The notes beneath the pieces are model-generated. The model was not told the origin of the DNA. It did no database searches and worked only from the letters and a program-made list of their open reading frames with translations. 64,000 nt of DNA from Thermoprotei archaeon (GTDB lineage: Archaea; Thermoproteota; Thermoprotei_A; Marsarchaeales; Marsarchaeaceae), in contig JAVZLA010000002.1 of NCBI GenBank assembly GCA_038883995.1, positions 5,261 through 69,260 of the forward strand, read 5' to 3'. Shown here in pieces: positions 23,838 to 61,340 of the stretch (the stretch's first letter is position 1; the number at the start of each line of letters is the position of its first letter). The translations under genes were made by a program, and so were the position numbers.

Positions 23838-25925
23838 ATGGGTGTAAACAGCGGAACAGGCGGGAGGAAACCAAACAGGCTGATAAACGAAACAAGCCCC
23901 TACCTTCTTCAGCACGCGTTCAATCCCGTAGACTGGTTCCCCTGGGGTCAGGAAGCGTTCGACAAAGCGAAAAGAGAAGACAAGCCTGTTTTCCTTTCTA
24001 TAGGTTACTCGAGCTGCCACTGGTGTCATGTAATGGAAAGGGAATGCTTCGAAGACCCTGAAGTAGCAGAGCTGCTCAACGATGCCTTTGTATGTATAAA
24101 AGTTGACAGAGAAGAAAGACCGGATGTTGACAGAATGTACATGGCTTTCTGCCAGGCCACCACAGGCGGAGGTGGATGGCCGCTTACAGAGTTTCTCACA
24201 CCAGACGGAAAACCGTTCTACGCCGCCACGTATATTCCTAAATACAGTACCTCTCAGACTGTCGGCCTGATGGATCTTGTTCCGGCAGTTCAAAAAGCGT
24301 GGAAAGAAACCAGAGAGCAGATACTGCGTGGCGCTGGCGAAGCGGTCGCGGAGCTTATGCGCGCTAGAGCCCCGTACTCTGCAATCAACCCTGATTCAAT
24401 CTTTCAGCACGCCTTTAACAGGCTTGCAGCCGAGTTTGATCCGGAGTGGGGCGGGTTCGGCTACGCGCCAAAGTTCCCTGTTCCCCACAGGCTGATGTAT
24501 CTTTTGAGATACGGGAGACGCTCGGGCAACGGGGCCGCCAACCAGATTGTTGAACTAACGTTGGCCAAAATGGTGATGGGAGGCATCCACGATCAGATTG
24601 GTCACGGATTTCACCGATATTCTACTGACAGAAACTGGCTTGTTCCACACTTCGAGAAGATGGTCTACGACCAAGCTCTAATGGTTTCAGCGCTATGCGA
24701 AGCATATCAGTCATCAGGGATTAAGGGGTTCGCGTGGTGTGCATCCGAAACGGCTTCTTTCGTCTTAAGCGATATGACTGCCCCGGGGGGCGGGTTCTTC
24801 TCCGCGATGGATGCCGATTCTCCCGAAGGGGAAGGGTCATTCTACCTGTTGACCGATCAGGAACTGCGTTCTGTGCTCACCGACTCTGAACTTCAGGAGT
24901 TCCGAAAGTGGATGATATTAGAGTCAGTGGAACCTGGAGGCACCGGCACTGTGACAGAGCCACGTAAAATTGTTACCATGTCACAAAACCTTTGGGAATA
25001 CCTTAAACAGAACGATGCACCACCTGCAACCCTGAGCCAGGCGCTCACGAAGCTACGAGAAGCACGTTACACGAGGCCTAAGCCGGCGCTGGATGAGAAA
25101 ATACTTTGCGACGTGAACGGCCTGACAATAGCGGCGATGTCGATGGCTTCCAGAGTACTAGACGATGACAGGTTCCTTCATGCAGCGACCAAGAGCGCGG
25201 AATTCGTGTACCATAATATGGTTCGTTCAGGCACCCTGTTTCATTCATACACGAAAGGCAAGCTATCTGTAGAAGGGTTTGTGGACGACTACGCGTTTTA
25301 CTCTTACGGACTGTTCCAACTGTATCAGTCGACGTTTCAAACCCGATATCTTAAGCTGGCGGTTGAGTTCGCTGAAGAAATGATTTCACGCTTCTGGAGC
25401 AGTGAAAGAAACCTGTTCTGCGACGGAGGCCCTAAAGAAGTTTCTGCAAACTTCGCGGAACCGGAAACCTATGATGGCTCCGTCCCCTCGGGAAACTCTG
25501 TTGCGGCGTACACGTTGAGCAAACTGTTCAAGGCCACGGGCAACTCACGTTATGATGACTTTTCGCGGGCGGTGCTCAAGTCTTTTGGACACGTGTTTGA
25601 GAACTCTCCTGAGGCGGCATGCTTTGCTCTGTGCGCCCTCGATGAGATTGAATCGGTTTCAAGAGAAATAGCGTTAGCAGGAGCCAGAACCGACCCACGT
25701 GTCCGCAGAATGGTGCAGGCGGCAAGGAAGGGCTTTCATCCGGGCGACGTGATCCTAGTGGTCCCCGAATACGGCGACGAACGCTCAGAACTCGTAAATC
25801 TCGCCCCCTACACTTCTTCGATGACTTCTGAACAGGGTGCGCCAAGAGCCTATGTTTGCCAAAACCATTCGTGCAATTTCCCTGTAACTGACTTAGATGA
25901 TCTTGAACGATTGCTCAGCCATTAA
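23838..25925 (+). CDS. thioredoxin-domain protein of the YyaL/SSP411 (DUF255) family with a GH-like alpha/alpha toroid
   Basis: [57 protein letters not shown] is the hallmark N-terminus of this family. Confidence 0.85.
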
Positions 25926-26703
25926 GTTCTTTCCGCGCGTATACTGCATATGCCACTGCCATTGAGAAAAACAGGTAGCCCAACATTATGTACACTGACT
26001 CAAAGACGTAAGGCTGGTAGACGTACACTTTTCTCCCTAGTTCACTGGTTACCGTAACATGAGCAGGGTAACTTTGCAGAGCTAGGTTCGAAACAGCCGA
26101 AGAAGCATAGGTTATCAGAAACCATGGTTCTACATGGGACAGAAACATCAACACGCCTTGAACAAGGGGCATGGCCACAACTACGATCAGAATTGACACT
26201 ATTATCGAAAGACCCTGGCTTCTGAACATGGAGCTGAACATGATTATGAACATGGTCAAAGAGGCTCCGAAAAGAAATGTGAGACCCAGTATCTGGGGAA
26301 GAGTGGAAACAGTTGTGTGATAGAGGACATAGCTAAAGGCGACACCTATTACAAACGTTGAGACCATAATGGCCGAAACCGCCAGAAACGCTGATGTGAA
26401 TCTGGTTAGCATTATCTTCAGTCTGTGAACGGGTTGTGTCAACGTAAAGTATCCCTGTTGTGAGTAGTCTTGGGAAATCGCGTCTCCGGCCATAACTGCC
26501 GCTACTAATAGCACGTCGTCTGTTACTCCTCCAAGGGTCTGTGCAGTAAAAGCATTCACAGTTTGAGGCTGAGGAATAGTATTGGTGTACATTAGTAGAG
26601 GCGTCAGAAGACTGATGAACACATAGAGAGGTAGCATTACGAGGAATCTTCGCGTTCTGAAGTAGAACTTCAGATAGGTTTCAAGGAGGAGCCTCCAGCT
26701 CAT
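25915..26703 (-). CDS. ABC-2 type transporter permease
   Basis: Six TM segments. It overlaps the upstream ABC ATPase gene by 4 nt. Confidence 0.6.
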
Positions 26704-47959: not shown

Positions 47960-48865
47960 GTGAAGGCCACTCGAACTGCATTTACTCAGAAACTTTTTCC
48001 TCCTGTTTTAGTCGTGGGACTGGGCTTTGGATTCTACTGGTTCGCCTACTTTCAGTTAGAAGCGGGTCAGCCAGCTAACGGCTTTCTCGCTGCATATTCG
48101 ACTCTGGTATTCTGGGTCGGCGTGATGTCTGTCCTAGCCTGGACGTGGTTGCGAGAGCCGATCGCCACGTTCATTCGACCGAAAACTCGGCGTAGAGCGA
48201 TAGCAGCTTTTTCCTCGTATCTTCCAGTTCACTTGGTTGTCTACGGCCTGCTGTTGGAAAGAGTCTTAGCGGGTCTCTTTGGGTACCCGGGCGGTATACA
48301 CTCTTACGAGTTGTACGTAACTTATTCGCCCGTTTATCCTGTGAACGTTCTGAACGCTTTTCTCGGGTTGGTCGTCACACCGAGTGTCTCGCTTGTTCTG
48401 CCTCCAACATACGGGCTGGACCTTGCCGCATACTCGTTTGCCATGGCGTTGATCATAGCGGTTCTTGTCGCCGGAAACGTAGCAGCCCTTAAGACGGTTG
48501 GCTCCTCTTGTTCGACGAAGCGAAGCAGTCTGACTTACCTGGGTCTTCCAGTTTTAGGGGTAGTGACCGGGGCGTCTTGCTGTCTTTCGGTTCCAATCTT
48601 ACTGGACATCGCCGTGCCGGCGGCCGGTTCGCTGCTGCTCACCACTCCAGTCGCATATCTGGCATACTTGGTCTTTCCGTCGGCAACAGCACTTGCTCTT
48701 AAACAGAACTTCAATTTACTTACAAGGATATCTACCCGGATGAACGGGTCACTTGCAGCAATTGGGGGTAAGATTCCCTTTGCGCAGGGGAAAACCGCTG
48801 AATCCACTTCCAGGCTTGAACGTTTAAAAGATCCCGAACACGCCGAAGAATTCGGGCGACAGTAG
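47960..48865 (+). CDS. polytopic membrane protein (hypothetical) with a paired-Cys motif
   Basis: About 8 hydrophobic segments. TGASCCLSVP lies in a predicted TM helix. GTG start with a TATA-like GTATAAAC about 30 nt upstream. Confidence 0.5.
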   Translation: MKATRTAFTQKLFPPVLVVGLGFGFYWFAYFQLEAGQPANGFLAAYSTLVFWVGVMSVLAWTWLREPIATFIRPKTRRRAIAAFSSYLPVHLVVYGLLLERVLAGLFGYPGGIHSYELYVTYSPVYPVNVLNAFLGLVVTPSVSLVLPPTYGLDLAAYSFAMALIIAVLVAGNVAALKTVGSSCSTKRSSLTYLGLPVLGVVTGASCCLSVPILLDIAVPAAGSLLLTTPVAYLAYLVFPSATALALKQNFNLLTRISTRMNGSLAAIGGKIPFAQGKTAESTSRLERLKDPEHAEEFGRQ

Positions 48866-49819
48866 TTGTCCTACTGGAGGAATATCGCACTGATCATAGT
48901 CTTGGCTCTTGTTCTGGCTGGATTCTGGTTTGTCGAAGACAAGCTGAACCCGACGTCAAACTCCCAAAATGGCTGCTCGCTTGGATCACTCGCGTTGCCG
49001 GATGTCACAGTTGAAACAAGCGTTCAGCCGGACGCTTCCAAGCTCGGACAATCCTCGGGCCCGTCGCTGCAACTTGTTGTTTCAGGCTACTACTCCAATT
49101 ACACATCCGTCGAAGCCAACATAGCCGGCTCCATCAAACGTTCTTCGGAGGTCTACTCGCAGGCTCTCAGAATCAACATCACAGGGCCAGCGAACCAATC
49201 GGTCAACCTAAGCCTCAAGGGTGAGCCTGCAGGCTCCTACGCAACATTTTCCCCTAACCCGGTTAAGACAGACAGCTCAGGGCATGCGACAGCGACGCTG
49301 TTCCTATACGGCATCGCCACGTCGACTACTGGCTCTCAAAAGAAGAGCCTGACTGTTGTGGCGTCGGAGCCAAATGGGTCTGCGTCCATAACACTGCAAG
49401 CTTCTGTAACTGAGCCATACGTATACGGTGTCTCGCATCCAGGTGCATTGCGCTTGGGGACAGCTGTGGAATCCGAGTGTTCGGGCGGGTTTCTGCTATA
49501 TGGACTGGTGTTTATACCCCCTGATAGTGTTGGTTCCTCGTCATCATTCATCCCGATGAGCCTGAAAGTAGTTGGCGTATACGACGGAACCAAAGTCGCC
49601 CCGCTTCCTTCCTGGCTAAACGTCTCCTTCCAGCCTAACGAAACCATTCTGAGGGCTTACACATTGAGCTTCATTACACTGCTGGAATCGAACAGGTTTC
49701 AGGCACCTAGCGGGTCAGCGAGCTACATTTCCACAGTCACGCTGGCAATAAACGAATCAATAGCTGGACATTCGTACATTGTGCCCGTAAACCTTTCACT
49801 TGTACCAGCCTTCGACTAG
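48866..49819 (+). CDS. secreted or anchored beta-rich protein (hypothetical, Ig-like domain)
   Basis: N-terminal signal anchor, then beta-strand-rich sequence with N-x-S/T sequons. It starts immediately after the stop of 47960..48865. Confidence 0.5.
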   Translation: MSYWRNIALIIVLALVLAGFWFVEDKLNPTSNSQNGCSLGSLALPDVTVETSVQPDASKLGQSSGPSLQLVVSGYYSNYTSVEANIAGSIKRSSEVYSQALRINITGPANQSVNLSLKGEPAGSYATFSPNPVKTDSSGHATATLFLYGIATSTTGSQKKSLTVVASEPNGSASITLQASVTEPYVYGVSHPGALRLGTAVESECSGGFLLYGLVFIPPDSVGSSSSFIPMSLKVVGVYDGTKVAPLPSWLNVSFQPNETILRAYTLSFITLLESNRFQAPSGSASYISTVTLAINESIAGHSYIVPVNLSLVPAFD

Positions 49820-51050: not shown

Positions 51051-52265
51051 ATGGAGATGTATCGCAGCGATTCGTCGAACAGTTTGATAACTACACTGTT
51101 CGTCATGCGTACCATAAACTCGCTGGGATGGTCTTCAACAATGCCTTTCTTCGCGGTGTACTTGGAGAACTCAAGGCACACTCCGCTTTCACTGATCGGA
51201 GTATCCTACCTTCTCTCGGGGGCTCTGACACTGGTCAGTCAGCTCGCTGGTGGAAGACTTACCGACTTGTATGGGTCCAAGCCGATAATGCTCTTCGGCT
51301 ACGTCTCCTCGATCGTTTCTTCCGCGTTTACAGGGTACCTCATATATGAGAACTCGAACGTGCTGCTCCTGCTCACCCTCTATCCGTTGTTTTCTCTTCT
51401 ACGGGGAGTATCTAACCCTGCTACCTCCGCGCTCCTCGCAGCCCAACCACGCAAATCTATGGTGCAGACAGGGTTCTCGCTCCAAACGATGGGTGGAAAC
51501 CTAGGCTTCGGGTTTGGGCCTGCGCTCGGAGGGTTTCTCGCAGACAGGTTGGGCTACGCGGCCGTGTTCGCTCTAAGTGCGTCAACAGCAGCGACGGCTA
51601 CGATTATAACACTGGTCAAAGTTCACGCTTCCTCAACGCCGGAACTTTCATCCGGCAGCCATGTTCCAAGAGCCCTTCCGGATAAGTGGACGGCGGTGCT
51701 ATTGCTCGAGGTTTTCGGATGCTATCTGGTCAACGGGTTCACGTATACTACACTTTCCCTTTTCGCTGCAGGATTCAGGCATACAAGCAACCAGGAACTT
51801 GGATACCTGTTTGCCACCAATGGTTTCACCATAGTTGCTCTGCAGCTGCCTCTTATGAGGCTGATAGATAGAGCGAACCTGACCAAGGTTTCCCCGGGGA
51901 TAGGTGTGGCACTAACGGGTCTAGCATATCTGCTGGTTGCTGGCGCTAAAGGGTTCTTCGGCCTCGAATACGCGATGCTTGTGTCAACGCTAGGCGAGAT
52001 CTTGATTTCTGTACCTTCGCAACTCCTCGTCACAGCCAAGTCTCAGGCAGGTAACAGAGGAGTATACCAGGGGTATTATGCGGCTTCCTCGACGTTGGGC
52101 AGATCGCTTTCCAACTTTATCGGGCCGTCCGTATTGGGAATCTACGAATCGCAGCCAGGACTGGCGTGGTACGCGGCCTTTGGAGCAGGTCTGTTCGTTG
52201 CGGCCTCTTATTTCGCATCCTATCGCCAAGTTGTCTCACAGTCCGCTCCGGCCACTTCCCTGTGA
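51051..52265 (+). CDS. MFS transporter
   Basis: 12 hydrophobic segments and a GGRLTDLYG loop between TM2 and TM3. Confidence 0.75.
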   Translation: MEMYRSDSSNSLITTLFVMRTINSLGWSSTMPFFAVYLENSRHTPLSLIGVSYLLSGALTLVSQLAGGRLTDLYGSKPIMLFGYVSSIVSSAFTGYLIYENSNVLLLLTLYPLFSLLRGVSNPATSALLAAQPRKSMVQTGFSLQTMGGNLGFGFGPALGGFLADRLGYAAVFALSASTAATATIITLVKVHASSTPELSSGSHVPRALPDKWTAVLLLEVFGCYLVNGFTYTTLSLFAAGFRHTSNQELGYLFATNGFTIVALQLPLMRLIDRANLTKVSPGIGVALTGLAYLLVAGAKGFFGLEYAMLVSTLGEILISVPSQLLVTAKSQAGNRGVYQGYYAASSTLGRSLSNFIGPSVLGIYESQPGLAWYAAFGAGLFVAASYFASYRQVVSQSAPATSL

Positions 52266-52343: not shown

Positions 52344-54077
52344 TCAGAGTACAGGCAGGAATCTTGGTTCCGTGTTGCCTGGCTGCAAAGAGCCCTCAAT
52401 AGGTATCTGCGTAGAGCAGACCTGGCAGCGGTTATGGTTGTCTAGGTTCCAGGCGGTTATCGCATACCCGTGTCTTCCCACAACTAGGGCGCCGCATCCG
52501 TGGCAGTAAGTGTTTTCGTACCTGTGACCTGGAACGTTTCCGATGTAGACGTATTTCAGCCCAATCTTCTTCGCAACTGAGTAATGTTTTTCGAGGGTTT
52601 CTACTGGTGTTAAGGGGAAATCCATCATTTTGTAATCTGGGTGAAACCTGAGGAAGTGGACGGGAACAAATTCGCCCAAGTTGTCGTACACCCATCTGCA
52701 CAGTTTTTCACAGGCTTCAAGGCTGTCGCCCACCTGTGGCACAATCAGGTCAGTTACCTCAAGGTGAATGTTACTTTGTCTCTTACATTCGAGAAGTGTG
52801 CTGAAAACAGGCTCAGCGTCTGGGATACCTATGTATCTCTGAACAAACTTCTTTTCGCCGCTACCCTTGAAATCTACCGTCAGGCAGTCCAGGAATCTAC
52901 GCATCTCTCCCACTCCTTCGGGTGTGTCGTATCCGTTTGAAACAAATATGTTGAACAGGCCACGTTTCCTTGCCTCTAAGCCTATGTCGCGCGCGAACTC
53001 CATAAAAATGGATGGTTCGTTGTAAGTGTAGGCTATTCCCTGGCATCCCAGCTCAAACGCGTAAGAAGCGATACGGAGAGGAGTTGCCTCTGCGCCTTCG
53101 ACCTTACGCCACTGGCTGATGTCGCTGTTTTGGCAGTACCTGCAGTTATGCACGAGCAGGCCGTCGGCCACAAAATTGTGGTGCGGCGTGCATTCAATCG
53201 AGTAAACTGTAGTCACTTCGCCGGTCCTTTCAACGGCGCTCACCCGCTTCCACGTCAGCGGTGGGGAAACGATTTCAGCTTTCACGGATTCGTGCCGGCT
53301 CAAACGTTTTTCGGCACGCACTGTTATAGTGGCTGTGCGCAGCTTCTGCGTCTGGGTCTGTGATCCCGCGCTAGGTAATCTCTGCCGACCGGAAGCCTGC
53401 GGTGGTCTGCTTTCGATCTCCCACTGCTCTGAGCTCGACGCAGTTGAGGCTTCAGCGTGTCCGCTAACCCCTGAAAACCAAGAGACTGTCTCCTTTGGTC
53501 CACCAGTTTTGCCGACGCCTCCATACAGGTTGCCAGCAGAAGTCGAAAGAACATGCATGTTTGAAGTCAGCTTCGAAGCTTCAACCCATCCGTGCTCGGT
53601 GTACACAGGGTGGTCGCCTGTGAGAAACGCCGATTCGCAGCCATCCTCGCCGTACCTGAGTTCCCATAGTTCCGCGATCCTTTTTCCCAAGCCTGTTACC
53701 ACGCTAGCGCAAGGCTGGCCGGAACGGAGGTCAACTGACACCACAGAGTTCCCTGTGCTTATGTGGTCTATGCGCCTGAATGAGCCGGTTGAGAGAAGTA
53801 CCTTTGACCACGCTGGGTGGCAAAGCCAGTTGCATCCCGTTGTAGACAGAGAAAAAATCTTTGATCCAGGTTTGTAATGTAGTACGGGCTTCTTTTCAAT
53901 TGGGTCAACGTGTGCCGCCGAAACCCTTCCATATGCCAGCAGATACAGCCTGCCGTCCATGTTTTGGCGGATGCCGCACAAGCCTGTTTGCCCGTTGTCT
54001 AGGCGGCAAAGCCTGGCACAGGCCAAGCAGGTTACTTTGCCGTCAGATTGAACTCTGTACAGTTGGGCCTCTTGCAT
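52344..54077 (-). CDS. amrS: AmmeMemoRadiSam-system radical SAM enzyme (AmrS; PflA-like), interrupted by an in-frame intein
   Basis: Exteins: ...DGKVTCLACARLCRLDNGQTGLCGIRQN...VDPIEKKPVLHYKPGSKIFSLSTTGCNWL | CRYCQNSDISQWR... The spliced product restores GCNWLCRYCQN (CX3CX2C). Confidence 0.85.
   Translation of the reverse strand: MQEAQLYRVQSDGKVTCLACARLCRLDNGQTGLCGIRQNMDGRLYLLAYGRVSAAHVDPIEKKPVLHYKPGSKIFSLSTTGCNWLCHPAWSKVLLSTGSFRRIDHISTGNSVVSVDLRSGQPCASVVTGLGKRIAELWELRYGEDGCESAFLTGDHPVYTEHGWVEASKLTSNMHVLSTSAGNLYGGVGKTGGPKETVSWFSGVSGHAEASTASSSEQWEIESRPPQASGRQRLPSAGSQTQTQKLRTATITVRAEKRLSRHESVKAEIVSPPLTWKRVSAVERTGEVTTVYSIECTPHHNFVADGLLVHNCRYCQNSDISQWRKVEGAEATPLRIASYAFELGCQGIAYTYNEPSIFMEFARDIGLEARKRGLFNIFVSNGYDTPEGVGEMRRFLDCLTVDFKGSGEKKFVQRYIGIPDAEPVFSTLLECKRQSNIHLEVTDLIVPQVGDSLEACEKLCRWVYDNLGEFVPVHFLRFHPDYKMMDFPLTPVETLEKHYSVAKKIGLKYVYIGNVPGHRYENTYCHGCGALVVGRHGYAITAWNLDNHNRCQVCSTQIPIEGSLQPGNTEPRFLPVL
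53145..53822 (-). mobile_element. mini-intein (226 aa, no recognisable homing-endonuclease domain) inside amrS
   Basis: It starts with Cys (CHPAWSKVLLSTG...), has block B LTGDHPVY, and has terminal blocks VYSIECTPHHNFVADGLLVHN followed by a +1 Cys. The central 90 aa or so are low-complexity S/T/Q/G-rich. Confidence 0.8.
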
Positions 54078-54181: not shown

Positions 54182-54742
54182 TTACTCAATTATAGTAGCT
54201 GTGAACCTGTAGACCTGAATGGGTTCACGCCGCCAGGCGCCGGGGCTAAGCCCCGCCTTGACGCACACGGCGTCCAAAAGTTCAGTTGCCCCCCACCCCA
54301 TTTCCGTAGCCACCTGCGGTAAAAGTATGGCGCTTCTACTTCCGCTCTTGACCTGAACACCGTGGACTCCTGGAACTATTACACGGTCTATGTTTTCTTT
54401 ATCTTCGAGACGCAGCGCTTCCATTCTGTCAAGCACTGTGACCTCGAATTCACATCTATCGACTTCTTGCGGTGAAAGAGGCGGAAACCTGGGGTCGAAG
54501 AAAGCGGCCTGTCTTGCGGCTTCCCAGACTGCTTGAAGTAGGGGAAGCTTACCGTTAAGAACACCCATGCACCCGCGAAGCTTCCCAGATTCCTTAATGG
54601 TGACGAACACTCCGGTCGGCACAACTGTACCGGCCGAACTCAGCTTGCTGCCGCCTAAGCCAAGATAACATAATACAGCGTTCCTCGCTGTCTCAAGAAT
54701 AAGTCGCCGTTCAAAGGAAGGCTTGGAGATTTCCGCGACCAT
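54182..54742 (-). CDS. amrA: AMMECR1-domain protein (AmmeMemoRadiSam system protein A)
   Basis: GVFVTIKESGKLRGCMG signature. It lies immediately upstream of amrS on the same strand. Confidence 0.85.
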   Translation of the reverse strand: MVAEISKPSFERRLILETARNAVLCYLGLGGSKLSSAGTVVPTGVFVTIKESGKLRGCMGVLNGKLPLLQAVWEAARQAAFFDPRFPPLSPQEVDRCEFEVTVLDRMEALRLEDKENIDRVIVPGVHGVQVKSGSRSAILLPQVATEMGWGATELLDAVCVKAGLSPGAWRREPIQVYRFTATIIE

Positions 54743-58059: not shown

Positions 58060-59256
58060 TCAGGATTTGGGCTCAGCATAGATTATGTTGCCTAGTCCAA
58101 GTGCTCTCGCGACGTAGACAGCCTTATCTCCTAGAATTTTGAGCCTTTCTCTTATTTGGTCTGGGCCCAGGTTGTTTGAAAGGAGCCAACTTTCCAAGTC
58201 AGTGCTCATAGCGTCGCGGGAGTCCAGTGATTCCCTTATCAGTTGTGAAACAGAGTTGGAAGCTGTTATCAGTAGTTCGTAGCAGTTAAGCTTTGAAAGC
58301 ACGTCTGTGCCTTCGAGCTTAAGCTTCGAAAGTCTTACTCTTGCACCTTCAAGTGAAACTATTTCATTTGCTAGAGGCTCCAAGGCGGCTATAAGCGGGG
58401 CCTCTTCAAGCCTGTTGGATAGAGCTGGGTCGGAGGTTACTTCTACTTCTCCGAGCTCGTCCTTGTAAATCACAGTGATCGAGGAATGGTCTTCGCTTTT
58501 CGAATAAACAAACCTGACAGAGTATCCATCTTCGCGTTCGAAGCGAGCGATCAAATGACCCTGAGAAAGCTCGGCTTGTACGAGGACGTACTGGTCTAAT
58601 TTTTCGTAGTCAGGAACGGCTTCCTTCTTCAGCCAGTTTTTACCCAAGCGAACAGGAATACGCGCGCCCTTGACGAGTCTCGAAAAAGGCATATGGCCTC
58701 TGAACATCTCGGATTCCCTAGAGTCCAAGGTGAACTCGTATTCAATTGAGGGGTCGCAACGGTAGCTTGCTGAAGCCGCGTATCCGTTTTCTATTTTATC
58801 CAGTGTCAGAAGCCTATCCAGCAACGGTAGAGGATCGCCTATGAAGAAAGCCTCCAAGCTCTTCAACGCTTTGCTCTTCTCTGCTTCCAACGTCGCCATG
58901 TGCTGACGCAGCGTGTCTTGCAATTCCGTCTGGATTCTCTCCTTCATTTGAGAGAATACCGCTTCGGAAAATTCCACTATCTTGGAACCTGCCTCGGAAA
59001 ACACGTCATCCTCGGAGTAACGCTGAGCTACGCTTTGTATCTCATTCTTCATTTCTTCAATTTTTTCAATTCTTTCCTCTGACTCTTTTCTAGCTGCTTC
59101 GATGCTTTGCTTCTCCTCAGCGAAGAGTGTGGAGTGCTGCGTCGCCTCAACCAGGTTCGTAAGCAACTTTCGCAGAGACCGCGCCGGGTCGGCTGGCGGT
59201 ACAGGATCTATCCAGCGCATCGTACCCGCATAGCTGCACAAACTAATAAGGCTCAC
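58060..59256 (-). CDS. hypothetical protein with an N-terminal coiled coil
   Basis: 398 aa. Residues ~45-135 are heptad-like and charged (EEKQSIEAARKESEERIEKIEEMKNEIQ...). The C-terminal 250 aa are globular with no recognised motif. Confidence 0.5.
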   Translation of the reverse strand: MSLISLCSYAGTMRWIDPVPPADPARSLRKLLTNLVEATQHSTLFAEEKQSIEAARKESEERIEKIEEMKNEIQSVAQRYSEDDVFSEAGSKIVEFSEAVFSQMKERIQTELQDTLRQHMATLEAEKSKALKSLEAFFIGDPLPLLDRLLTLDKIENGYAASASYRCDPSIEYEFTLDSRESEMFRGHMPFSRLVKGARIPVRLGKNWLKKEAVPDYEKLDQYVLVQAELSQGHLIARFEREDGYSVRFVYSKSEDHSSITVIYKDELGEVEVTSDPALSNRLEEAPLIAALEPLANEIVSLEGARVRLSKLKLEGTDVLSKLNCYELLITASNSVSQLIRESLDSRDAMSTDLESWLLSNNLGPDQIRERLKILGDKAVYVARALGLGNIIYAEPKS

Positions 59257-59468
59257 ACGGCTGATTTTGATGAGTATCTATGAATACGTAGGGATAGCTT
59301 TGGAGCCCGGTAACATGAGCCACAGCTGTGAAAGCAGTAACGGCTCGAGATTCGCGTCGTGTGAATAAACCCACATGAAGCCAGTTGCAGGCGTAGACTG
59401 AGGTCCCCAGCATACGTAGGCGATAACCTCAGTATTTTAAACCCTATACTCCTTTATGGTACAAATCC

Positions 59469-61340
59469 CTATGTTTCTACAGGCTTCCTCAGGGGTGCGC
59501 TTCTGGTTCTGAAGTGTTCTTGAGACCTCGGCTTAAACGCAAAATCTATTCCCACGCTGAGAAGGAGTACAAAGACGCTGAGGGCCAAAATAGCCTCGAC
59601 GGCGGATGAATTCATCGAAAAGGTAAAGAACGTGAAGTTTAGCAGTTCCGCGTTAAACGCAGGAAACCCTATGCTAGGAACCGAAAGATACAGCAGCGTA
59701 AAGCAGGCGTCAAGTATCATGAGGAAAATTGTTGACCCGGTTGAGCCAAGCAAAAGAACATCGTATACCAGATACATGAGCAAAAGGGTGAGTGCTGCGA
59801 ACAGAGTCACTCTGGGATCTATGAAGTAGATTGCTCCCCCAGCCACAAAGCAGCTCAGTCCCACGCCCAGTGGAAGCGCTTTAGAGCCGCGTTCGGACAC
59901 CTTCCGTTTGAGCCAGATTGCTGAAAGAGAAATTATGCCTAGGCTCAACAGAACCATGACATTTGTTATGTTTACAAGGAAGTCTTCACCCCCCAACGCA
60001 AGAAACAGTATTGACCCGTATGTGAACACCCATGAGTAAGGCGCTAGGGACCTAGGCATGTACCCGTCTTCGCAGAGAGAAGACATGTGTCTGGACGCTG
60101 CGAGGAAAGCGGGGACGAAGGTTGTGAGCGTGGCCACCAGGAATACGACGGCCATGAGAAGTTCCTGATATGCCCCGAGGTAGGTCTTCGCCAGGTAGAG
60201 TGCAGGAATCTGAGATGAGAAGACCGTGGAAACATTGGGGTGTACCGCGTATACGGCTAGAGCGTACAGTATGTTTATCGCTGAAGCCATGACGACGCTG
60301 AGAATCATTGCGTAGCCCAGGTATTTTCCCTTGGAGACGGTGAATCCTTTCTTCACCCATGAAAGAAATGGAACAGAGGATTCGGCTTTGACGTCCTTCT
60401 CCAGTGACTGAATTTCTTGGAATCCGAAGAAGAGCAGATACAGGTATCCAGTATCTATTACGAGCGCCTCCACCCAGTTTCCGCTTAAATGCGCATTGAA
60501 AATTCCCCCTATGTTCCAGTTGCCGACGTTGCCCAGAAGTACACTATGGTAGACCAGCGCCAAAACCATGAACGATGTGAAAAGGATCTGCAAGGATCCT
60601 ACGGACCTCATCAGTCGGCGCTCAAGAATGGCGCTCGCCACAGACCATCCCACGAATACGGCTGCAATCGCGTATACCAGCAACGTGACAGGAAGACCAG
60701 TGTACCCAAAATGGGCCATGATACGTGGCAGAAATTCTACGTCAAAAATCACGAACACTATTTTTGAATAGGCTGCCAGTGCGGTATTAGCAACCCACAT
60801 TGAGACTCTTGCAATAAAATATCTCAGGCTTTTCACTCCGCAGGCCACCCTTGTAAACGAAGGGCCGCCGACAGCGCCCTTTCCTGCTTTCTGCGAAAAA
60901 ATGTACATATCGGCGTAAACCTTTGCCATAAGTGTTGAAAGCACGGTTGCCGCCAGAAGTGCGCCTATGGAGACTAGCTCATACTGTAATATGTTCTCAG
61001 GAATAAGCACGAACAGGGGCGAACCTATTGTTGCACCTAACCCGATCGCCAGAACCTGAGAGAACCCGTAGACCGGTTTTCCTGACATTTCAAACTTTGG
61101 AAGACGAAACCTTGTCCGCAGCGAGCTTGGTAGCAGTGAAACCATCAGGGAGCCTGTGACAAAAAGCAGGAACAGGCCTATTGCATATACTAGGTCCACG
61201 AAGTCGGGAGTGACGCCAGTTGAAAGATATGTGAGCTCTTGGGCCAATCCCAGAACGCCGTAGCATAGTGCTATGATTCCTGTTACTGCTGCAGCGAGCT
61301 TTACGACTAATCCAACTCGTCTTCTCAACTCGGAAACCAA
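59469..61340 (-). CDS. APC-superfamily permease-like membrane protein with extra C-terminal TM segments
   Basis: About 14-16 hydrophobic segments over 623 aa. The N-terminal 450 aa have an amino acid/polyamine permease-like layout. Confidence 0.55.
   Translation of the reverse strand: MVSELRRRVGLVVKLAAAVTGIIALCYGVLGLAQELTYLSTGVTPDFVDLVYAIGLFLLFVTGSLMVSLLPSSLRTRFRLPKFEMSGKPVYGFSQVLAIGLGATIGSPLFVLIPENILQYELVSIGALLAATVLSTLMAKVYADMYIFSQKAGKGAVGGPSFTRVACGVKSLRYFIARVSMWVANTALAAYSKIVFVIFDVEFLPRIMAHFGYTGLPVTLLVYAIAAVFVGWSVASAILERRLMRSVGSLQILFTSFMVLALVYHSVLLGNVGNWNIGGIFNAHLSGNWVEALVIDTGYLYLLFFGFQEIQSLEKDVKAESSVPFLSWVKKGFTVSKGKYLGYAMILSVVMASAINILYALAVYAVHPNVSTVFSSQIPALYLAKTYLGAYQELLMAVVFLVATLTTFVPAFLAASRHMSSLCEDGYMPRSLAPYSWVFTYGSILFLALGGEDFLVNITNVMVLLSLGIISLSAIWLKRKVSERGSKALPLGVGLSCFVAGGAIYFIDPRVTLFAALTLLLMYLVYDVLLLGSTGSTIFLMILDACFTLLYLSVPSIGFPAFNAELLNFTFFTFSMNSSAVEAILALSVFVLLLSVGIDFAFKPRSQEHFRTRSAPLRKPVET

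Follow-up and report, generated by a model that had tools for sequence, protein, structure and literature searches.

The amrS gene in a 64,000-nt stretch of DNA from a Thermoprotei archaeon (contig JAVZLA010000002.1, positions 5,261 to 69,260, forward strand; hereafter the window) very likely carries a canonical class-1 mini-intein, that is, a HINT domain that removes itself from the host protein and whose endonuclease was lost in this lineage. The host encodes the radical S-adenosylmethionine (SAM) enzyme of the AmmeMemoRadiSam system, and the element sits within its CX3CX2C cluster motif. An original prediction, made from the sequence alone, had pointed to a 577-aa open reading frame (ORF) with about 226 residues too many. 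This proved accurate to the base: the ORF occupies nt 52344-54077 on the minus strand, and the extra residues 86-311 correspond to nt 53145-53822. We consider the mini-intein real and probably active. The gene and the intein are laid out as follows.

52344-54077, minus strand: amrS precursor gene (AmmeMemoRadiSam radical SAM enzyme plus intein), 577 codons plus stop (ORF call, TIGR04337)
53823-54077, minus strand: N-extein, residues 1-85, ending ...TTGCNWL (translation; alignment with intein-bearing homologues)
53832-53834, minus strand: Cys82, first cluster cysteine, position -4 relative to the intein (residue indexing)
53145-53822, minus strand: mini-intein, 226 residues, protein residues 86-311 (PF14890, TIGR01443, HINT fold by AlphaFold2 and Foldseek)
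53544-53822, minus strand: N-terminal splicing lobe, intein residues 1-93 (same-site profile 1-94, 74.5 bits; predicted local distance difference test score, pLDDT, > 90)
53820-53822, minus strand: Cys1 (= Cys86), in the N lobe
53598-53630, minus strand: block B, AFLTGDHPVYT, with Thr68 and His71 (protein T153 and H156), in the N lobe
53289-53543, minus strand: central linker, intein residues 94-178 (no profile match; predicted disorder; site of the homing endonuclease in relatives)
53145-53288, minus strand: C-terminal splicing lobe, intein residues 179-226 (same-site profile 306-353, 41.3 bits; TIGR01443; pLDDT > 90)
53145-53210, minus strand: blocks F and G, TVYSIECTPHHNFVADGLLVHN, ending His-Asn, in the C lobe
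52347-53144, minus strand: C-extein, residues 312-577, beginning CRYCQN (translation, TIGR04337)
53142-53144, minus strand: Cys312, +1 splice nucleophile and second cluster cysteine (residue indexing)
53133-53135, minus strand: Cys315, third cluster cysteine (residue indexing)

Removal of the insert restores the cluster motif of AmrS

The amrS ORF is open throughout its 1,734 nt, with neither stop nor frameshift. When the insert was deleted, the remaining 351 aa gave a single continuous match to TIGR04337 (346.3 bits; protein residues 5-348 aligned with profile positions 2-345), far over the cut-off of 220, whereas the match of the 577-aa precursor was split in two and scored 328.6 bits. The predicted identity of the host as the AmmeMemoRadiSam radical SAM enzyme thus stands. 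The CX3CX2C motif, C82-NWL-C312-RY-C315, is complete only with residues 86-311 removed, and their removal recreates GCNWLCRYCQN exactly as had been anticipated.

The insert lies in frame, with CHPAWS as its first and GLLVHN as its last residues, between GCNWL (to residue 85) and CRYCQN. Its first residue, Cys86, directly follows Leu85. The block B T-x-x-H is T153-G-D-H156, within the LTGDHP that had been picked out as block-B-like, and the C-terminal junction is H310-N311↓C312 (arrows denote splice junctions), comprising a penultimate His, a terminal Asn and a Cys at +1. The residues for class-1 splicing (Cys1, block B Thr and His, His-Asn, Cys+1) are therefore complete, and Cys312, which follows N311, is at once the +1 nucleophile and the second cluster cysteine, as proposed. 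Four cysteines, at positions -4, 1, +1 and +4, cluster around the junctions, and three more (C123, C147 and C296) lie inside the intein.

A 182-aa ORF on the plus strand (53329-53877) overlies the greater part of the intein; the high GC content and scarcity of stops on that strand are its most likely cause.

The insert has the profile and predicted fold of an intein

The mini-intein reading held up against hidden Markov model (HMM) and profile searches, comparison with the sequences of solved structures, fold prediction and the presence or absence of the insert in relatives. In a Hint-domain HMM search with the insert alone, Pfam PF14890 (Intein_splicing) scored 39.1 bits, above its gathering score of 35.8 (E 8.7e-10), and TIGR01443 (intein_Cterm) scored 21-24 bits (cut-off 15.6). 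Pfam PT-HINT, Hint and Vint gave weaker matches, those of PT-HINT and Hint being sub-threshold. A profile of inteins from the same site matched the insert at E 4e-38 (117 bits). Among sequences of solved structures in the PDB, the best match was the Spirulina (Spl) DnaX mini-intein 7cfv (E 2.9e-9), followed by PhoCDC21-1, a BIL domain, NrdJ-1 and Mtu RecA. In line with the absence of LAGLIDADG and HNH motifs that had been noted, no endonuclease family in Pfam or NCBIfam matched the insert at E ≤ 1.

The intein was modeled with AlphaFold2 from an input alignment of eleven same-site inteins. The pLDDT exceeded 90 for intein residues 1-96 and 182-226 and fell below 50 for residues 97-181. The low-complexity centre described at the outset was evident here too: the central linker (intein residues 94-178) matches nothing, is rich in Ser, Gly, Thr and Ala over its 85 residues and is predicted to be disordered. 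When the model was compared with the PDB using Foldseek, the top matches were all inteins or other HINT domains. The template modeling (TM) scores, normalized to the target, were 0.85 for NpuDnaB (4o1r), 0.84 for 1mi8 and 0.81 for 7cfv; 3ifj was also matched.

The intein is sporadically distributed among archaeal amrS genes

A survey of orthologs found the insert in many proteins and in none of the 120 nearest extein homologues. These 120 best matches to the extein-only sequence (61-69% identity) are all 350-432 aa long without the insert and belong to Marsarchaeota, Nitrososphaerales, Conexivisphaerales and related groups. When the precursor was used as the query, all but one of the 120 best matches carried Intein_splicing and/or nested-endonuclease Pfam domains (DUF559, REase-like); the remaining protein, P0117 (548 aa), has only Radical_SAM in its precomputed domain list. 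The intein lies at the identical junction, ...C-x-W-[L]↓CHP...HN↓C-x-x-C-x-N, in 103 of these 120 proteins, and in 79 of the 103 its length is exactly 353 aa.

GTDB species representatives were then scanned with the junction peptide, which returned 80 loci, 60 of them with an intein at this site (hereafter site a). As the retrieval pattern is the junction alignment and favors intein-bearing alleles, these counts give the breadth of the distribution, at least 60 species-representative genomes, and no frequency. Complete inteins were present at 51 of the 60 loci, the other nine being truncated or unresolved; 27 of the 51 are full-size, 22 are minis (141-185 aa) and two are intermediates. The loci belong to Thermoplasmata, Methanomassiliicoccales, Bathyarchaeia/Bathyarchaeota, Nitrososphaerota/Thaumarchaeota and 'Methanobacteriota'. 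Intein-free loci (L062-L071 and L073-L080) read GCxWLCxYCQN across the site. The site-a intein is thus sporadic and cross-phylum, as expected of a mobile intein.

The insertion site had tentatively been taken to be uncatalogued. In the literature searched, no paper describing an intein in AmrS or in a 'PFL-activating enzyme' homologue was found, and in a large intein survey radical SAM, Fe-S and MoaA all go unmentioned (PMC4760082). On this count the surmise stands, but the site is occupied in many archaeal metagenome-assembled genomes (MAGs). An intein at the amrS site is therefore common in uncultured archaea and apparently undescribed; an intein in a radical-SAM enzyme as such is already known (MoaA; NCBIfam NF038136).

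Full-size relatives at the site carry an EDxHD nuclease, and the family displays stages of its loss

The site-a inteins of amrS (amrS-a; P0020, P0060, L001-L061 and others) share with the window copy the insertion point GC[NS]WL↓CHP...HN↓CxYCQN and homologous lobes. The invariant residues C1, H2, P3, T68, H71, P72, W79, H225 and N226 are common to both, H71 being present in at least 90% of the aligned set. Throughout the same-site family, Cys1 and the block B Thr are invariant and the block B His is nearly so. The relatives are mostly 353 aa long, with a Cys/His-rich segment and a DUF559/EDxHD nuclease, whereas the window copy has 226 aa and an unrelated disordered linker, and its lobes are only 30-43% identical to theirs. 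Only positions 1-94 (74.5 bits) and 306-353 (41.3 bits) of a profile of the 353-aa inteins found a counterpart in the window insert. C-lobe comparisons were taken from hmmsearch and MAFFT; hmmalign to the 353-position model misplaced this lobe.

The centre of the full-size relatives scored 30 bits against DUF559 (gathering score 20.6), with a sub-threshold match to REase_MTES_1575. Its consensus consists of a Cys/His-rich segment, F.C..CG...WNRHRG.CY, followed by YIADAA...LDIEVDGWWH...RD..L..NGW.VLRI. After HINT matches were set aside, the model of the P0020 intein (residues 98-450) matched 3r3p, the catalytic domain of I-Bth0305I, at E 9.7e-4 with a target-normalized TM of 0.78 and 24% identity. 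EDxHD nucleases (Vsr-like; prototype I-Bth0305I) have been described in group I introns, as free-standing genes and between split-intein halves (PMC3239194), and DUF559 has been equated with this family (PMC9403480). Unlike in those contexts, the domain in the amrS-a relatives nests in a contiguous intein; the window copy is without it. From these comparisons, DUF559/EDxHD, and neither LAGLIDADG nor HNH, is the likely type of the domain lost from the window copy.

Deletion intermediates with nuclease fragments were found in P0070 (294 aa), P0107 (262 aa) and P0071 (215 aa), which retain VWYQNT..., the CxxC segment or the ...NGW.VLRI... strand. Same-site minis of 169-185 aa occur in P0009, P0065, P0081, P0089, P0104 and P0117. 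Given the graded fragments in the intermediates, the family displays successive stages of endonuclease loss, and a single site shows a complete homing-cycle series, from full-size inteins with an EDxHD nuclease through partial deletions to minis. The ancestor of the window copy would have been a mobile 353-aa intein targeting the archaeal amrS site, equipped with a homing endonuclease of the DUF559/EDxHD (Vsr-like) type. That endonuclease would later have been lost in this lineage, by a route that we infer, leaving an unconstrained, disordered 85-aa linker. With such a linker and no endonuclease, the element is probably immobile and inherited vertically.

The nearest intein-bearing protein, P0001, is 53% identical overall and is encoded on a 6.4-kb Logan contig with the gene order AMMECR1-amrS-MFS, as in the window. 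Identity is 66% for both exteins, 40% for the N lobe, 54% for the C lobe and 24% for the linker, the last value coming from a forced global alignment and reflecting no real similarity. This pattern fits an intein that was inherited vertically after it had become endonuclease-free, its lobes being under selection and its linker not.

Proposed splicing route

The precursor would be translated as 577 aa, its HINT domain being formed by intein residues 1-93 and 179-226. An N-S acyl shift of Cys86 (Cys1) on the Leu85-Cys86 bond, helped by Thr153 and His156, would be followed by trans-thioesterification, which would pass the N-extein to Cys312 (+1). Cyclization of Asn311, aided by His310, would then free the intein, and an S-N shift would link Leu85 to Cys312 to give the 351-aa enzyme with GCNWLCRYCQN. 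This ordinary class-1 route, which has the best support, follows from the residue inventory together with established intein chemistry (PMC10663303).

Before splicing, the precursor can reasonably be supposed to be inactive or to lack a proper cluster, because the insert breaks the motif loop and the splice nucleophile is itself one of the ligands. This is not certain, because the HINT fold draws its ends towards each other and the four cysteines therefore remain spatially close. The same proximity of the cysteines at -4, 1, +1 and +4 makes redox or metal control conceivable, and the redox gating raised in the original prediction is plausible in view of the Pyrococcus abyssi MoaA precedent.

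Points against an active mini-intein and alternative explanations

Several observations weigh against the interpretation of the insert as a canonical mini-intein that has lost its endonuclease. Position 4 of block F (F:4) is Ser (VYSIEC) and not the usual Asp, a Ser that is also the same-site consensus. The Asp at F:4 coordinates splicing steps and is common, not universal, in active inteins; Ser is therefore compatible with intein membership. The intein is also distant from all known inteins: when it was searched alone against 1.84 billion representative proteins, 159 matches reached E ≤ 1e-3, of which 12 passed E ≤ 1e-10 and none passed E ≤ 1e-30. Five positions at least 96% conserved in the family, all non-catalytic, are substituted (G5W, D25N, W28V, Y30V and P39A). 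Furthermore, the linker of the window copy bears no nuclease trace. A profile of 91 full-size same-site inteins detected no nuclease remnant in the six frames of nt 53000-53950, and hhalign of the linker with the nuclease region of the relatives gave a probability of 0.1%. The possible decayed endonuclease of the original prediction fits the family history and the deletion intermediates, but the window copy has kept no similarity to it, and we infer its deletion from the relatives. Finally, the intein has a GC content of 0.563, where the exteins have 0.504 and the window averages 0.510 (standard deviation 0.021), which places it at the 99.7th percentile of 678-nt stretches in the window. The splicing lobes are raised too (0.556 and 0.562), not the S/G/A-rich linker alone. 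Such a GC content is a little awkward for a long vertical residence; the S/G/A-rich composition may account for part of it.

Some of these points would suit a splicing-dead relic, in which an inactive HINT domain leaves amrS effectively a pseudogene or a non-functional fusion protein. In addition to the substituted family positions and the lost endonuclease, amrS has no protein in the sequence collection, where its two neighbors bear the consecutive accessions MEM3670236.1 and MEM3670237.1. However, every residue known to be necessary for class-1 splicing is kept, the 1,734-nt frame is uninterrupted, the exteins reach 346 bits on TIGR04337 with all three cluster cysteines intact, and relative to P0001 the lobes have changed less than the linker; a simpler reason for the missing record is that annotation pipelines handle inteins badly. 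We therefore regard a relic as quite improbable. Still less credible, to the point of being barely worth entertaining, is a non-intein HINT module, either BIL-like or a permanent insertion domain, that would undergo cleavage or persist in the protein without ligating the exteins, or an assembly chimera. The top Foldseek matches do include the BIL domains 6y75 and 2lwy, and Pfam PT-HINT and Hint matched below threshold, but BIL domains typically lack a terminal Asn combined with a +1 nucleophile in a conserved host motif. The terminal Asn and the +1 Cys, together with the exact restoration of the motif on removal, ruled out a BIL domain, and the identical junction in more than 100 independent assemblies ruled out a chimera.

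A further proposal adds to the mini-intein interpretation without replacing it: the endonuclease-less intein might be kept as a conditional switch controlling when an oxygen-labile enzyme matures. A disulfide, Cys312-Cys315 (CXXC), Cys86-Cys312 or Cys82-Cys86, or a bound metal or cluster would prevent splicing, so that the precursor would be held under oxidizing or iron-limited conditions and the active site formed only in a reducing environment, once the cluster can be loaded and protected. The four junction cysteines speak for it, as does the survival of endonuclease-free minis across numerous lineages, where they account for 22 of the 51 complete site-a inteins, and Radical_SAM is the commonest host domain of the inteins most like the window copy. 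There are precedents in Pyrococcus abyssi (Pab), where a native Cys-3/Cys1 disulfide in the MoaA intein blocks splicing until it is reduced and a Cys1/Cys+1 disulfide is found in the PolII intein (PMC3922620, PMC10663303). On the other hand, conserved Cys/Ser/Thr motifs attract inteins for purely selfish reasons, the nearest extein relatives live without the intein, the linker is unconstrained, and Cys82-Cys86 forms a CX3C whereas the known redox trap is a CX2C. On balance such a switch appears unlikely. If it were real, the recurrence of inteins at all three CX3CX2C cysteines across radical-SAM families would reflect function besides selfish targeting. The window copy, naturally endonuclease-free and with cysteine-rich junctions, would lend itself to tests of redox- or metal-conditional splicing in a radical-SAM enzyme.

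Annotation and genomic neighborhood of amrS

The protein encoded by the amrS ORF was not found in a 15-billion-sequence collection in which both flanking proteins were found. Exact sequence look-ups in a contig index located neither the precursor nor AmrA. As the flanking genes have consecutive accessions and amrS has none, it was probably left as a pseudogene, as non-coding or unannotated. In other MAGs, NCBI calls of intein-bearing amrS lack their N-terminal part (499, 636 and 640 aa, compared with 570 and 711 aa). The database names take no account of the intein: they are 'pyruvate formate lyase activating enzyme' at JGI and, at NCBI, 'DUF559 domain-containing protein' or, on truncated calls, 'AmmeMemoRadiSam system radical SAM enzyme'. 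Recognizing the intein recovers a complete AmrS in this and many archaeal MAGs. The two flanking genes are as follows.

54182-54742, minus strand: amrA (AMMECR1 family), adjoining amrS upstream (PF01871, 154.6 bits)
51051-52265: MFS transporter gene (MEM3670236.1)

AMMECR1 (AmrA) and Memo (AmrB) are partners of AmrS in the AmmeMemoRadiSam system. The identical AmrA protein is named 'AmmeMemoRadiSam system protein A [Thermoprotei archaeon]' at NCBI (MEM3670237.1). A Pfam scan of 20 of the ORFs in the window detected no member of the Memo (AmrB) family; the contig is only part of the genome. The window contains no second amrS copy and no further intein, and no tRNA or Rfam feature was found in it. 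Other genes of the neighborhood encode xanthine/CO-dehydrogenase-type molybdoenzyme subunits with XdhC, a glucoamylase, a sedolisin-type peptidase and a nucleoside hydrolase; the neighborhood looks like that of an aerobic heterotroph. Five larger ORFs (301, 317, 398, 623 and 262 aa; 47960-49819, 58060-61340 and 25915-26703) matched no Pfam family at E ≤ 1e-5.

Inteins recur at the cluster cysteines of radical-SAM enzymes

A second intein was observed three residues after site a (site b) at 18 GTDB loci and in several proteins (P0048, P0077, P0098, P0102, P0108 and P0115). The architecture is ...VHN↓C-[RQ]-Y↓C[FI]xPG...[GS]N↓CQN, in which the middle extein is C-x-Y and the third cluster cysteine serves as +1. 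Both inteins are present at L002, L010, L013, L024, L032, L033, L036, L037, L040, L041, L043, L045, L048, L049, L052, L056 and L061, with the gene start at about 4001 in most of these, and site b alone at L072. Site-b inteins are about 185-198 aa long, or about 403-408 aa with LAGLIDADG_3, and end in Gly-Asn or Ser-Asn, not His-Asn. The spacing at site b is Cys-3/Cys1, as reported for the redox trap of Pab MoaA.

Among 82 representative proteins with the inteins most like the window copy, Radical_SAM was the commonest host domain, with 13 proteins, seven of which are also B12-binding. The class B, B12-binding protein P0246 reads RG↓[intein]↓CPYFCAF↓[intein]↓CDWG, an arrangement that puts one intein ahead of the first cysteine and another ahead of the third; a further intein lies at another place in the protein. 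Inteins within CX3CX2C were also seen in the radical-SAM proteins P0253, P0278, P0286, P0340, P0364 and P0385, several with HN↓CxxC junctions. Taken together, site b, the 13 Radical_SAM hosts and P0246 mark the cluster motif as a general hot spot for inteins across the superfamily.

Comparison with known systems

The window copy has the HINT fold in common with four structurally characterized mini-inteins, Npu DnaB (4o1r), Spl DnaX (7cfv), Ssp DnaB (1mi8) and Mtu RecA delta-I (3ifj), at target-normalized TM scores of 0.79-0.85. Like them, it has the class-1 residues, is endonuclease-free and has its lobes joined by a linker. It differs in sequence (12-19% identity in the structural alignments), in host, theirs being replication/repair proteins, in its unusually long natural linker (~85 aa) and in the Ser at F:4. 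NCBIfam NF038136, the model for the intein-containing Rv2578c family radical SAM protein, shows that curators already recognize radical-SAM proteins with inteins. It represents another host family and matched the intein part weakly, at 20-22 bits against a cut-off of 700 bits; no model for an intein-containing AmrS surfaced in the NCBIfam scan.

MoaA is a radical-SAM enzyme, and its intein in Pab is for this reason the closest published precedent. Both sites combine an archaeal radical-SAM host with extein cysteines beside the splice junction. However, the host families differ, and the Cys-3/Cys1 (CX2C) of MoaA contrasts with Cys-4/Cys1 and Cys+1/Cys+4 at the window site. From this spacing, the MoaA intein would lie before the third cysteine of CX3CX2C and would be the counterpart of site b, not of the window site. 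The known intein repertoire is dominated by replication/repair ATPases. With the amrS intein, this repertoire gains a host that is a metabolic iron-sulfur enzyme and a very exact insertion site, in which a ligand of the cluster doubles as the +1 nucleophile. The general picture of inteins is unchanged; the site and its undescribed family are a modest but real addition.

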